Source: a virus. Taken from it: a stretch of 55,230 bases of DNA. The stretch lies in the IMG/VR virus record IMGVR_UViG_3300031555_001876; one strand, given 5' to 3'. The translations under genes and the position numbers were made by a program. Under the pieces are notes generated by a model that did not search any database, was not told the origin of the DNA, and worked only from the letters and a program-made list of their open reading frames with translations. Of the stretch, positions 17,480 to 19,307 are shown one piece after another; position 1 is the first letter of the stretch, and each line of letters begins with the position of its first letter.

Positions 17480-17560
17480 TATTTTATTAAAGTTATCGAT
17501 ATACTTTTATCGATATATTTCATTTTTATCGATATATTTTTATCGATAACTTTAACGCTT
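17480..17560. promoter_or_regulatory. Array of four palindromic TTATCGATA(T/A) sites spaced 12-16 bp apart. Candidate operator array.
   Basis: ttatcgatatac, ttatcgatatat (twice) and ttatcgataact between 17497 and 17553. Confidence 0.45.
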
Positions 17561-17614
17561 TAGTCAAATGAAGCGCCGGGCGCTGACGTACGATGCTCCC
17601 ACGTCAGCGCCGGA

Positions 17615-17770
17615 ATTTCCATTATACCACACCGCCAGCATTTTGTCAAGCAAAAAGTTGCACAAAAATAAATAAATTATTTATCCCGAAATTGTGCAAC
17701 TTTTTCTGCAAAAGTTACAAATTGTAATTGACTTCCTATGAGGTCGGTGTTATAATGTTAGTGTCAAGGG
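17615..17770 (+). repeat. Element of about 150 bp made of a long hairpin (AAGTTGCACAA...TTGTGCAACTT) followed by a TTGACT-N17-TATAAT promoter. A second copy lies at 19130..19285.
   Basis: About 90 percent identity between 17615-17770 and 19130-19285. Both end in ...ttgtaattgacttc(c)tatg...tgtataatgtta. Confidence 0.55.
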
Positions 17771-18138
17771 GAGATACCTCTGAGCCACATCTATGGTGTG
17801 GGGCTACGGTTGGAAGTAGCAATAGACCTTGGTGCTCATAAAATTGCAATAGATGAGTTGCATAGGAACGCACGAGGATGTGAAAAAATTTTCACAGAAA
17901 CCCCTTGACAAACTCCACCAAGTGTGGTACAATAAAGGTGTCAAGGGGAATGAGAGACTATCGTCCCCAGTTACAAGGGAGACCACAGGGGATTACATCG
18001 GCCGAGTAAGTGGTGTTGCTTGAAAAGAAATTTGAGAAAATTTCTGAAAACCCCTTGACAAATCACCAAGTCTATGATATAATATCAATGTAATCAAGGG
18101 AAGGAAAACCCTTAAAAAACCAGAAAGGAATTGATACT

Positions 18139-18549
18139 ATGGCTAACAAGATGGTAAAGAGAGATTATTTCACTGCTCTGCGTGGCTTCATCGAAGCCCA
18201 TCCCGAAGTGCATTTCGGCACTGATAAGCATCCCGACATCCCTATCGGTGATATGCTTGCGTTCGTGGATAACGAACTGACCCTGCTTGCTTCCAAGTCT
18301 GGGGCAATCAAGAAGCCCACTGAAAAGCAGACTCAGAATGAGGTTTACAAGACCGCTATTCTGCAGTATCTGCGCGAAGTGGCTCCCGAGCATAAGTCCA
18401 TCGCTGAAATTTGGGATGGCGTGGAAGCCCTTTCCACTAACCCCGATATGACGGGTCAGAGAATTTCCGCTCTGATTACGCAGTTGAAGAATGACAATCT
18501 GATTGTCAGAATCGAAGAGAAGCGCAAGGCTTACTTTAAGGCTGCGTAA
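18139..18549 (+). CDS. Hypothetical protein. It is a paralogue of the gene at 16350..16769.
   Basis: Same ribosome binding site context (aaaggaattgatactatg). Three tandem promoters lie upstream at 17730, 17905 and 18050. Confidence 0.55.
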   Translation: MANKMVKRDYFTALRGFIEAHPEVHFGTDKHPDIPIGDMLAFVDNELTLLASKSGAIKKPTEKQTQNEVYKTAILQYLREVAPEHKSIAEIWDGVEALSTNPDMTGQRISALITQLKNDNLIVRIEEKRKAYFKAA

Positions 18550-18619
18550 ATGGGCTAACGCCCATTCGGAAATCGGGGGGCTAAGCCCCCCGAAACTTTA
18601 ATCAATGAAAGGACAAGAA

Positions 18620-19021
18620 ATGTTAACAACTGAAAAAATTAAAGCCATGGACAAAAAGGCTCAAGAAAAAGGCAAGGAATTTTTTTATTGGGGCTTTTAC
18701 ATTGATTATCTCGGCAATATTATTTGGAAGCCCGGCACAGCTGCAATTCTGTGGAGACGCAAGAAACAACATGACCGAGATTATTTGAAACCCACGTGTA
18801 ACCACCGCATGATGGACGGCACAGAATTCCATTATTTGTGGGCTATTCCTTTGGCAAAATGGACAACCCGCAAAGTCGAAGAATCTACAATCAACAGACT
18901 GAAAGCCGAAAATTTTGGCGAATACATTCTGAATGACCGTTTTGTTGATGTAAATCACGCTGAAAGCGTTGATATTATCGTCCGCAAAACCTATACAATT
19001 CCCCTTTGTTGTGCAATTTGA
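18620..19021 (+). CDS. Hypothetical protein of about 133 aa.
   Basis: Ribosome binding site AAAGGACAAG and ATG at 18620. A terminator gccccgtagaaaatggggcg lies at 19028-19050. Confidence 0.45.
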   Translation: MLTTEKIKAMDKKAQEKGKEFFYWGFYIDYLGNIIWKPGTAAILWRRKKQHDRDYLKPTCNHRMMDGTEFHYLWAIPLAKWTTRKVEESTINRLKAENFGEYILNDRFVDVNHAESVDIIVRKTYTIPLCCAI

Positions 19022-19129
19022 CGAATCCGCCCCGTAGAAAATGGGGCGGATTTTTTGTGCATTTTGCCTATTGACAAATCCAAGCAGATGTGGTATAATG
19101 GCCGGCCCTCCACGTGCGCTCGGGCCGGT

Positions 19130-19285
19130 TTTTCCATTATACCACGCCTCCCGCATTTTTGTCAAGCGTTTTTATAAAAAAAGTTGCACAAAATAAAATC
19201 CCGAATTTGTGCAACTTTTTCTTGAAAAGTTACAATTTGTAATTGACTTCTATGGCTTCTGGATGTATAATGTTAATGTAATCAA
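19130..19285 (+). repeat. Second copy of the hairpin plus promoter element described at 17615..17770.
   Basis: See 17615..17770. Confidence 0.55.
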
Positions 19286-19307
19286 AAGAGAGTTCTAGAG
19301 GATACCA

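Follow-up and report, generated by a model that had tools for sequence, protein, structure and literature searches.

Stacked promoter and leader modules and an operator-like palindrome between divergent promoters in a predicted early control region of a putative Clostridia phage

Coliphage T7 carries the tandem early promoters A1, A2, and A3. T4-like phages carry promoter-early stem-loop (PeSL) cassettes (PMC2839356, PMC4122927), and in phi29 the sites for the p4 protein lie between the divergent early A2c/A2b and late A3 promoters (PMC1904284, PMC3100819), with Spo0A boxes situated upstream of early promoters in both phi29 and Nf (PMC2731898). Stem-loops at the very 5′ end of a transcript are established mRNA stabilizers, examples being the aprE leader, ermC, and the 5′ stem-loops of E. 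coli (reviewed in PMC3997798), and mycobacteriophage DS6A has a transfer-messenger RNA (tmRNA) of ~65 nt that contains no coding sequence (CDS) and is reported to inhibit the tmRNA of the host (PMC11915505). Here we analyze, against the background of these systems, the region from 17.45 to 19.3 kb of a 55,230-nt viral sequence, IMG/VR virus record IMGVR_UViG_3300031555_001876 (the whole stretch is referred to as the window), which contains a duplicated promoter element built around an inverted repeat of TTGTGCA and a series of stacked promoters in front of a small gene that we term A2. We propose, with moderate confidence in the explanation as a whole, that this region is part of an early control region, dependent on the host RNA polymerase, of a large Clostridia phage, and that it is best read as a set of modular, PeSL-like cassettes of stacked promoters and leaders with an operator located between divergent promoters.

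The window is AT-rich (34.6% GC), and the segment from ~10.3 to 20.3 kb forms a block of higher GC content (~35–43% vs. 24–41% elsewhere in the window) that is filled with short open reading frames (ORFs) of unknown function. Promoters were scored as the match out of 12 to a sigma-70/sigma-A-type consensus, those with at least 11/12 being considered near-consensus, and 24 such promoters are located between 10300 and 20300, compared to an average of 0.47 and at most 4 in shuffled sequences and to only six in the remaining 45 kb of the window. Hence the block looks like an early region that is read by the host RNA polymerase. The stacked promoters discussed below match the consensus at 11–12 of the 12 positions, and most of them have the TG of an extended −10 element. 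In a blastn search against 50,697 phage records, DNA similarity was found only to the human-gut phage phAss-1, and this over 168 nt. This phage is a member of a TAG-recoding group whose predicted hosts are Clostridia (PMC10607447); it is classed as ‘Caudoviricetes code 15 clade’.

Gene A2 (18139–18549, plus strand) encodes a protein of 136 aa with a predicted winged-helix fold at its C-terminus, a candidate DNA-binding regulator, and it is preceded by three rightward promoters. The first of these, P1 (17728–17756; TTGACT-17-TGtTATAAT, 11/12), is part of the duplicated element described further below. Two more had been proposed in an initial annotation of this DNA and both are present, namely P2 at 17905–17933 (TTGACA-17-TGgTACAAT, 11/12), which is identical to a promoter in the related contig L066, and the gene-proximal P3 at 18055–18083 (TTGACA-17-TGaTATAAT, 12/12). 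As had also been noted, the segments between the promoters both open with GTCAAGGGG, at 17763 and 17940, and neither contains a credible ORF, the only ones that overlap them being of 30–56 aa. A coding function was rejected, the sole ‘homology’ of the 56-aa ORF (17853–18023) being to translated promoter sequence (KPLDKLHQVWYN). We refer to the two ORF-free leaders, both on the plus strand, as unit 1 (17763–17909) and unit 2 (17940–18059). In unit 1, GUCAAGGGG at 17763–17771 is complementary to CCCCUUGAC at 17901–17909, which overlaps the −35 box of P2, and in unit 2 the same GUCAAGGGG at 17940–17948 is complementary to CCCCUUGAC at 18051–18059, which overlaps the −35 box of P3. That the opening of each segment is complementary to the −35 region of the promoter after it had previously been overlooked. 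In the last leader the G-rich start pairs locally instead, in a short hairpin of the predicted 5′-untranslated region (5′-UTR; AAGGG-N8-CCCUU, 18096–18113, plus strand), the equivalent of which in L012, L014, L062, and L063 is AGAGG-N4/6-CCUCU. The 3′ part of unit 1, GAAAAAATTTTCAC, resembles an UP element, and the AT-rich hairpins at the ends of the units are likewise UP-element-like and lack a U tract. A terminator scan of 17756–18139 made no call. Since units 1 and 2 are without terminators, their transcripts should run on into A2, and the alternative offered in the initial annotation, that the stacked promoters drive the gene at 18139, is currently the better fit.

We therefore picture two modules, each made up of a consensus promoter with its UP-like element and a leader free of ORFs, stacked before the gene-proximal promoter of A2. 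The three promoters would give rise to nested transcripts that read into A2, with predicted starts at ~17763, 17940, and 18090, each starting with (U)GUCAAGGGG, which would pair with CCCCUUGAC(A) at the next −35 region or, in the case of the last promoter, with the local CCCUU. A 5′ end buried in such a stem would, by analogy with the known 5′ stabilizers, shield the RNA from 5′-end-dependent decay. The modules are exchangeable, and recombination at the repeated promoter sequences would have changed both their number and their cargo between relatives, as in the PeSL cassettes of T4-like phages.

Folding of the inter-promoter segments, in which the initial annotation had seen stem-loops, gives a divided result. 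The whole units are far more stable than shuffled sequences (z = −5.3 and −3.7), but their cores are not (z = −1.75 and +0.22), and the source of the whole-unit signal is the closing stem of 9–10 bp formed by GUCAAGGGG/CCCCUUGAC together with the UP-like AT-rich hairpins. The possibility that units 1 and 2 are duplicates of one another was discarded, the alignment of their cores scoring below that of shuffled sequences. Covariation in the leaders was counted for the closing stem only. Of its 13 pairs, ten can be made in every one of the six units, one position being compensatory (G–C vs. A–U), and the other three pairs lengthen the stem to 12–13 bp in some lineages in a lineage-specific manner. 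The stem is GUCAAGAGG/CCUCUUGAC in L014 and GUCAAGAGGGAA/UUCCCUCUUGAC in L063 (13 pairs counted, with the preceding U–A included), while that of L065 is as in L063 with one G·U pair and that of L066 has 12 pairs counted. These changes lend genuine but slender compensatory support to a predicted RNA stem. The two partners lie anywhere from 4 to ~130 nt apart, which fits pairing within an RNA better than it fits a fixed protein site or DNA operator.

The units occupy what appears to be a slot of variable content. Between conserved flanks there are two units in the window and in L066 and one in L014, L062, and L063, with L012 and L065 having one each within a truncated contig, and the cargo sequences of the window and its relatives are unrelated to each other although the flanks are conserved. 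The samples behind L012, L014, L062, L063, L065, and L066 are SRR32209769, ERZ28633552, ERZ27297463, SRR18763205, and the JAEIGA and RHMF assemblies. Copies of units 1 and 2 are found elsewhere only in sequences that are at least 99.9% identical over 17401–19320 (L017–L020, L024, and L064), the other relatives carrying different cargo. In L062 the slot (982–1042) contains a 61-nt tRNA-like domain of a tmRNA (RF00023, 37.8 bits, E = 2e-12), and the second unit of L066 (1310–1394, minus strand of the locus) contains one of 85 nt (RF00023, 19.3 bits, E = 2e-4), both matches being below the RF00023 gathering score of 47. Both of these mini-tmRNAs are CDS-less and have the G3·U pair, a T-arm, and an ACCA end, and each has its own consensus promoter. 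The presence of tRNA-like domains in the slot of relatives means that it can hold true RNA genes.

It is this property of the slot that sustains the strongest of the alternative explanations, in which units 1 and 2 are independent small RNA (sRNA) genes with their own promoters, the products of which are processed out of read-through transcripts at the closing stem and act in trans on targets of the host or the phage, for example as decoys. The equivalent slot of L062 and L066 contains the CDS-less tRNA-like domain of a tmRNA, a kind of molecule that is reported to inhibit host tmRNA (PMC11915505), each unit of the window has a dedicated near-consensus promoter and a whole-unit fold of the stability given above, and a neighboring promoter-driven, ORF-free RNA (19900–20075) is conserved with compensatory changes. 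The small RNAs of 100–130 nt envisaged in the initial annotation thus gain comparative support as far as the capacity of the slot is concerned, but the units themselves do not have the expected properties. Each has its own promoter but no defined 3′ end, neither of them ending in a terminator, and their cores are no more stable than shuffled sequences. Neither unit matches any Rfam family at E ≤ 10, and permissive Rfam searches of 17400–20300 and 7000–17500 gave nothing credible. They are not tmRNA-like, as there is no tmRNA or tRNA match at E ≤ 10 within 17400–20300 and neither unit has a T-arm or an ACCA end, and ARAGORN found nothing in 10–21 kb or in the relatives. When trans targets of units 1 and 2 and of the leftward RNAs described below were sought within the window, complementarity was at chance level, never longer than 13 nt, or was limited to shared repeat motifs. 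Moreover, the related units of L014 and L066 gain or lose whole hairpins, which suggests that the cargo is under weak constraint. On balance we regard independent sRNA genes as a possible but unlikely explanation of units 1 and 2, and we prefer to see these units as leaders that are read through into A2.

The neighboring RNA deserves a description in its own right. A perfect promoter at 19870–19899 is predicted to drive an ORF-free transcript of ~170 nt that is 71–90% conserved in four relatives (the homologs of 19870–20075 are L012 2005–2216, L014 6815–7040, L063 4040–4275, and L067 1–104, minus strand). RNAalifold analysis of four sequences gives 24 pairs, of which six are changed on both sides (e.g., GGGCC/GGCCC to GGGUC/GACCC), and this RNA is the best-supported candidate for a non-coding RNA in the region. 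It is followed by three further stacked promoters at 20076, 20169, and 20240. Another stack of consensus promoters is located at 10315–10430, the intervening segments of which are very short or AT-rich.

A different view of the closing stem is that GTCAAGGGG and CCCCTTGAC are not RNA partners at all but DNA operator half-sites, through which a winged-helix A protein represses its own stacked promoters. The A proteins are A2 and its paralog A1 (16350–16769, plus strand, 139 aa, winged-helix family), the paralogy proposed at the outset being borne out by 60% protein identity and 73% DNA identity over 279 nt, and both have a predicted DNA-binding fold. The motif is confined to promoters of the A1/A2 block (16805, 17763, 17901, 17940, and 18051), with the exception of CCTCTTGAC at 10311 and 11532, and it overlaps the −35 box or the +1 position, which are classic positions for a repressor, and a G-to-A change in L014 is mirrored in every copy, as if the specificity of a protein had co-evolved with its sites. 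The inverted copies, however, are spaced by anything from 4 to ~130 bp, which is unlike a dimer operator and is what RNA stems would show, and the complementarity in L063 and L066 is extended by different, lineage-specific bases, as fits pairing rather than a shared motif. We consider half-sites of this type improbable and retain RNA pairing as the preferred explanation of the motif. An inverted repeat, CCTCTTGAC...TTAAGAGAGG, also flanks a promoter at 10311–10345 in the same way as at 16805–16845.

The second component of the region is the duplicated element, of which the window has just two copies. Its duplication is evident from the match of 17609–17764 to 19124–19279 (76% identity over 168 columns; 133 of 178 columns are identical in a global alignment), and both copies contain the TTGACT-17-TATAAT promoter, at 17728–17756 (P1) and at 19243–19271, the latter without a leader unit before the gene at 19308–19565, which it would drive directly. 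What had been overlooked is that each copy also contains a minus-strand promoter, both 12/12 with an extended −10 element (17649→17621, TTGACA-17-TGgTATAAT followed by GGAAAT, and 19165→19136, TTGACA-18-TGgTATAAT), with a GC-rich hairpin downstream of it (17576–17613 and 19100–19130), and a 13-bp palindrome, TTACAA(A/T)TTGTAA, that abuts the −35 box of the plus-strand promoter (TTACAAATTGTAA at 17715–17727 and TTACAATTTGTAA at 19230–19242). With these additions the element becomes a bidirectional promoter cassette of ~190 bp. In an alignment of eight copies, comprising the two of the window and those of the related lineages L014, L062, L063, L065, L066, and L067 (six lineages), both promoters and the 13-bp palindrome are near-invariant, with variation only at the central A/T and at one −10 position, and both hexamers of the leftward promoter are invariant in all eight, while the GC hairpin keeps its position but not its stem sequence. 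The cassette layout of phAss-1 is identical, and a search with the cassette pattern gave no matches in IMG/VR and three in metagenomes. In functional terms, the near-consensus promoter of the rightward arm would drive early genes, and the leftward arm would couple a perfect sigma-A-type promoter and a GGAAAT discriminator to a strong GC hairpin.

The surroundings of copy 2 differ from those of copy 1. The gene at 18605–19021 is followed on the plus strand by a terminator-like hairpin at 19027–19056 (CCGCCCC...GGGGCGG, then T6), which was read directly from the sequence and, with its loop of 9 nt, is not listed by the scanner. Next comes a 12/12 promoter at 19071–19099 (plus strand), with a TTGTGCA box 9 bp upstream, which faces the leftward promoter of copy 2. 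The copy-2 GC hairpin (19100–19130) lies between these face-to-face promoters and is followed by T5 on the plus strand. The two perfect facing promoters at 19071–19165 have their −10 hexamers just 36 bp apart, and this arrangement is seen in three lineages, the window, L067, and phAss-1 (OQ749652, ~130.7 kb; L088 1500–1620). Polymerases at the 19071 and 19165 promoters would be expected to exclude each other.

At the center of each cassette is the TTGTGCA palindrome. The inverted repeat that gave rise to the original description of the element is certainly present, with arms of 14 nt in copy 1 that are 100% complementary (17652–17665 and 17692–17705; AAAAAGTTGCACAA-N26-TTGTGCAACTTTTT, 17652–17705) and with arms at 19178–19192 and 19206–19220 in copy 2 (AAAAAGTTGCACAAA-N13-TTTGTGCAACTTTTT, 19178–19220), the latter having the canonical spacing of other phages. 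The notion of a hairpin followed by a promoter as one transcribed unit is not supported, however, as the palindrome is upstream of both flanking promoters, between their divergent −35 boxes, and so is transcribed by neither of them, and what was described as a hairpin plus a promoter is, we suggest, better understood as an operator that separates two divergent promoters. The pattern AAGTTGCACAA-N(8–38)-TTGTGCAACTT has exact matches in 11 IMG/VR contigs, and AAGTTGCACAAA-N14-TTTGTGCAACTT is found in 20 GTDB contigs, mostly metagenome-assembled genomes (MAGs) of Lachnospiraceae, Ruminococcus, and other Clostridia from rumen and gut, where ~0.002 matches would be expected by chance. Across these loci the arms are exact (22–24 nt) while the spacer sequence varies, and spacer lengths cluster at one value, from which the only expansions are of +10 or +11 bp (the +10-bp spacers are those of window copy 1 and L010). 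Between the window's own two copies there is a length difference of +10 bp to one side of the palindrome and of −11 bp within it. All 13 TTGTGCA boxes of the window are within the early block, at 10.5–19.2 kb, and when the gap from the box to the −35 hexamer of near-consensus promoters was measured in the window and related loci, it was 9–10 bp in 24 of 62 cases, 19–20 bp in 18, and 29–31 bp in nine, such that 51 of the 62 are phased. Many of these boxes are single, and hence unable to form a hairpin, but obey the identical phasing rule, and the palindromes of L014, L062, L063, L065, and L066 have a decayed left arm and a right box at an unchanged distance. Exact arms, a free spacer sequence, and quantization in steps of 10 bp point to a site bound by protein on one face of the helix and are unlike a terminator or RNA hairpin. 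Hence the palindrome, a conserved inverted repeat at helically phased distances from the −35 box, is most likely a protein-binding DNA site of the class-I or p4 type used by upstream transcription factors. The TTGTGCA pair would bind a dimeric DNA-binding protein on a fixed face of the helix relative to the RNA polymerase, and the bound protein would co-regulate both divergent promoters, either by switching them off or by activation.

The same data bear upon the proposal that the palindrome is not a protein site but functions as a nucleic acid hairpin, which could be a cruciform or could separate transcription units as a bidirectional intrinsic terminator or an insulator. In its favor, the palindrome is invariably intergenic, A5 and T5 tracts flank it in the window and at many other loci, the predicted RNA hairpin is stable (−16 to −18 kcal/mol, z ~ −6), and copy 2 is downstream of the promoter at 19071. 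Yet its arms are exactly conserved at ~30 loci of different genera with a variable loop, and terminators do not conserve the sequence of their stems. Its loop of 13–26 nt and its four GC pairs among 10–12 are not those of an intrinsic terminator, the terminator scan made no call at the palindrome, and the T tract is absent from several copies (L001, L002, L005, and L006). A hairpin would likewise leave unexplained why unpairable single boxes show the same 10-bp phasing to −35, why five relatives have lost the left arm but kept the right box, and why spacer length changes in steps of 10–11 bp. We therefore give the hairpin little credence, less than the half-sites considered above, and continue to treat the palindrome as a probable protein-binding site.

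To our knowledge, none of the CIRCE, Rex, LexA, BirA, PurR, NrdR, CRP/FNR, and ECF −35 motifs fits the palindrome, and a literature search with the TTGTGCA palindrome as a string found no regulatory description among the matches listed, which looked like incidental sequence matches. The best phage-encoded candidate for a TTGTGCA-binding protein is the A1/A2 family, which is the most recurrent protein beside the palindrome (seven loci, tied with one other family). An AlphaFold model of the family (pLDDT 89) has a C-terminal winged helix that matches the DNA-binding domains of Fur, PerR, SmtB, MarR, and forkhead proteins, and profile matches to the winged-helix domains of BlaI and Hop2 are weak. 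Neither A1 nor A2 matches Pfam or PHROGs, and an A2-based search for related loci in IMG/VR gave none. The family is no more than a candidate, since the same co-occurrence would result from synteny among related phages. A host regulator is equally possible, given that in several Lachnospiraceae contigs the palindrome is located 60–80 nt upstream of genes for sigma factors of the extracytoplasmic function (ECF) type, which suggests that the TTGTGCA site may belong to a host regulon that has been borrowed by phages. The exact 38-bp palindrome occurs in MAG contigs of Lachnospiraceae/Clostridia at L069 6459–7109, L077 7615–8003, and L082 352–1051, and the sigma factor genes of L069 and L082 contain the Pfam domains Sigma70_r2 and r4. 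A further motif, TTTGACGAA, is present in seven copies vs. 0.74 expected (13772, 14265 on the minus strand, 14299, 14683, 14723, 14754 on the minus strand, and 19017), each beside a TTGTGCA box. TGACGAA differs at a single position from TGTCGAA, the Spo0A box through which early promoters of phi29 and Nf are regulated (PMC2731898). That the sporulation state of the host might control the phage via TTTGACGAA is only a lead.

The leftward transcripts of the cassettes would be non-coding RNAs that open with a stable 5′ hairpin. In copy 1 the GC-rich hairpin at 17576–17613 (minus strand; ΔG ~ −27 kcal/mol, z = −5.3) starts 7–9 nt after the leftward −10 box and is predicted to form the 5′-terminal structure of such an RNA, and in L014, L062, L063, L065, L066, and L067 its position is kept with a different stem sequence. 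A bidirectional terminator-like hairpin at 17453–17481 (12-bp stem with six GC pairs, T-rich tail on the plus strand) closes the upstream operon and is likely the 3′ end of the leftward RNA. The predicted RNA from copy 1 would thus be ~165 nt in length, extending from ~17614 through an array of TTATCGATA boxes to the terminator at 17481–17453, and that from copy 2, which would run from ~19129 to 19027, ~100 nt. The array consists of four boxes (17493–17549) in two inverted pairs (arms 17487–17515 and 17527–17555) in AT-rich DNA inside the leftward transcript. There are seven copies of TTATCGATA in the window vs. 0.84 expected and one to three at the equivalent place in L014, L063, and L066, and the boxes could be an operator or an iteron array. 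The array reported previously is real, but it is not evidently carried by the gene at 16350 as was thought, being downstream of the third gene after 16350 and behind a terminator. That the left half of copy 1, with its leftward promoter, GC hairpin, and AT-rich TTATCGATA array, is a transcription-activated origin of replication is very unlikely, for although four iteron-like boxes in AT-rich DNA right downstream of a very strong promoter, and similar arrays at the same place in L063 and L066, would be in keeping with such a role, L062 has no box and L014 only one, there is no GC-skew switch at the position of the array, searches of the neighboring ORFs against Pfam and PHROGs recognized no replication initiator gene, and copy 2 has the same promoter and hairpin with no array.

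The combination of promoter and hairpin extends to the related contigs, where two classes of consensus promoter can be distinguished. Ordinary promoters are followed by an AAA-rich leader and a ribosome-binding site, and ‘hairpin’ promoters have the form TGnTATAAT-GGAA(A/T)UU(Y) and are followed immediately by a GC stem of 9–16 bp (ΔG −19 to −33). The latter are present several times per phage in at least 10 contigs. In L004, L007, and L011 an A-rich linker comes after the hairpin and then a terminator-like hairpin, beyond which L004 has a convergent gene. In these contigs the unit looks like a stand-alone RNA of 60–70 nt.

Other features of the window lie outside the elements discussed above. 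Pfam and PHROGs searches of ten neighboring ORFs assigned no function to A1, A2, B, C, D, or E, and at gathering thresholds Rfam gave 13 tRNA matches in the whole window and nothing else. The segment 43257–50549 contains 14 tRNA genes (Leu ×2, Asn, Asp, Tyr, Glu ×2, Val ×2, Ser, Ile, Arg, Pro, and Gln), none of which is a suppressor tRNA despite a cassette architecture like that of the TAG-recoding phAss-1. A 1.3-kb non-coding zone rich in repeats (13520–14830), which might serve as an origin, as a partition site, or as a hub of regulation, has TTTGTGCA(A/T)TTTGACGAA boxes, among them long inverted pairs at 14262–14307 and 14714–14772, and repeated CTTCATTTGACTAAAGCG and TAAAG(C/T)G motifs, and additional copies of CTTCATTTGACTAAAGCG are found at 10055, 10121, and, on the minus strand, 17556–17573. 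In L014 (8034–8892), genes with Ribosomal_L14 and KOW (L24-like) domains adjoin the early region. They may mark the border of a prophage or a chimeric assembly, or may encode a ribosomal protein of the phage.

Several considerations weigh against the interpretation that we favor. Every promoter and RNA end in it is a prediction from sequence, and although the anatomy, the statistics, the conservation, the phasing, and the replacement of cargo are direct observations, active promoters, a bound protein, a stabilized RNA, and read-through are inferred. The compensation in the leader stem rests on essentially one event, its covariation score is reached by 25 of 500 shuffles, and an inverted DNA motif would give the same closing-stem pattern. 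The mini-tmRNAs in the slot of relatives argue that it can hold true RNA genes, and the co-occurrence of the A family with the palindrome could be plain synteny among related phages. In addition, the palindrome folds well as RNA, its A and T tracts are like those of a bidirectional terminator, and its second copy lies downstream of the promoter at 19071. A far-reaching version of the proposal would have the slot as a hot-swappable site for small anti-host RNAs, made up of cassettes with their own consensus promoters, bounded by inverted promoter-linked repeats, and having CDS-less tmRNA decoys among their cargo, with units 1 and 2 as new functional sRNAs and the TTGTGCA palindrome as the operator of an as yet undescribed regulator, one common to host ECF-sigma operons and to many phages of Clostridia. 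We view that combination as speculative and rather doubtful.

How early transcription is controlled in phages that infect gut and rumen Clostridia has hardly been studied, as there are almost no cultured systems, and it is in this context that the region is of interest. A 38-bp box that is strictly phased with consensus promoters and is common to dozens of uncultivated phage contigs and some Lachnospiraceae loci predicts a specific regulator. The region also offers a recurrent class of RNA, that of promoter plus 5′ GC hairpin, and a modular slot whose short non-coding inserts, mini-tmRNAs among them, differ from one related phage to another. Of these leads, we find the phased palindrome and the class of promoter-hairpin RNAs the most interesting. 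If the proposal is correct, these elements would help to annotate early regions and regulatory RNAs of phage genomes from metagenomes, and would supply strong, compact promoter parts for Clostridia. Should the units turn out to be no more than leaders, what is left is an early promoter array of an ordinary if elaborate kind.

Among described systems, the PeSL cassettes are the closest. Like the elements in the window, they are small composites of a strong sigma-70-type early promoter and a stem-loop, are repeated among small early genes of unknown function, and bound indels and replacements between close relatives, as do the cassettes here, where the number of units and their cargo differ between conserved flanks (L012, L014, L062, L063, L065, and L066). 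PeSL cassettes, however, belong to a different phage group with Gram-negative rather than Clostridia hosts and are found in the hyperplastic regions of T4-like myoviruses, whereas the only match in the phage collection is phAss-1 of the ‘Caudoviricetes code 15 clade.’ Moreover, the cassette in the window is bidirectional, its stem-loop directly follows the promoter instead of preceding it, it has an extra phased palindromic box, and the exchanged cargo is a non-coding leader or RNA rather than ORFs. The T tract of a terminator stem-loop is mostly absent. Of the two GC hairpins, only that of copy 2 has a T5 tail, and neither is called a terminator by the scanner. The element thus works like a PeSL but falls outside that class in its phage lineage and in the arrangement of its stem-loop.

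The cargo and leaders have their own parallels. L062 (61 nt) and L066 (85 nt) resemble DS6A in carrying a tmRNA reduced to the tRNA-like domain in the slot of units 1 and 2, a resemblance that those two units, with neither a tmRNA match nor a T-arm or ACCA end, do not share. The predicted transcripts of the leader units, the 5′-UTR hairpins, and the leftward GC hairpins are paired from about the first nucleotide, as are the known 5′ stabilizers, but in units 1 and 2 the partner strand is 130–140 nt downstream and coincides with a promoter −35 box, and by this analogy the leader stem may have a stabilizing effect. As in T7, three strong promoters for the host polymerase are located within a few hundred bp and read into early genes, which in T7 are the first; here, by contrast, the 5′ end of each leader pairs with the next −35 region, the stack lies within the early region and not at a known end of the genome, and the number of promoters varies among relatives.

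For the palindrome the closest parallel is the p4 site of phi29, which is also an inverted repeat with a spacer of ~15 bp between divergent phage promoters and upstream of their −35 boxes, which likewise has A/T tracts, and which has the word AACTTTTT in common with the palindrome. In phi29 the bound regulator controls both directions, and Spo0A is a precedent for a host regulator that acts upstream of early promoters. The half-site in the window, however, is TTGTGCAAC, with AAAAAGTT...AACTTTTT everted relative to the AACTTTTT-15-AAAATGTT of p4, no p4 homolog was found, and the binding site in the window is a predicted one. The features of the window are variations on familiar types of element, namely cassettes of early promoters, operators phased upstream of promoters, and leaders with a 5′ stem-loop.

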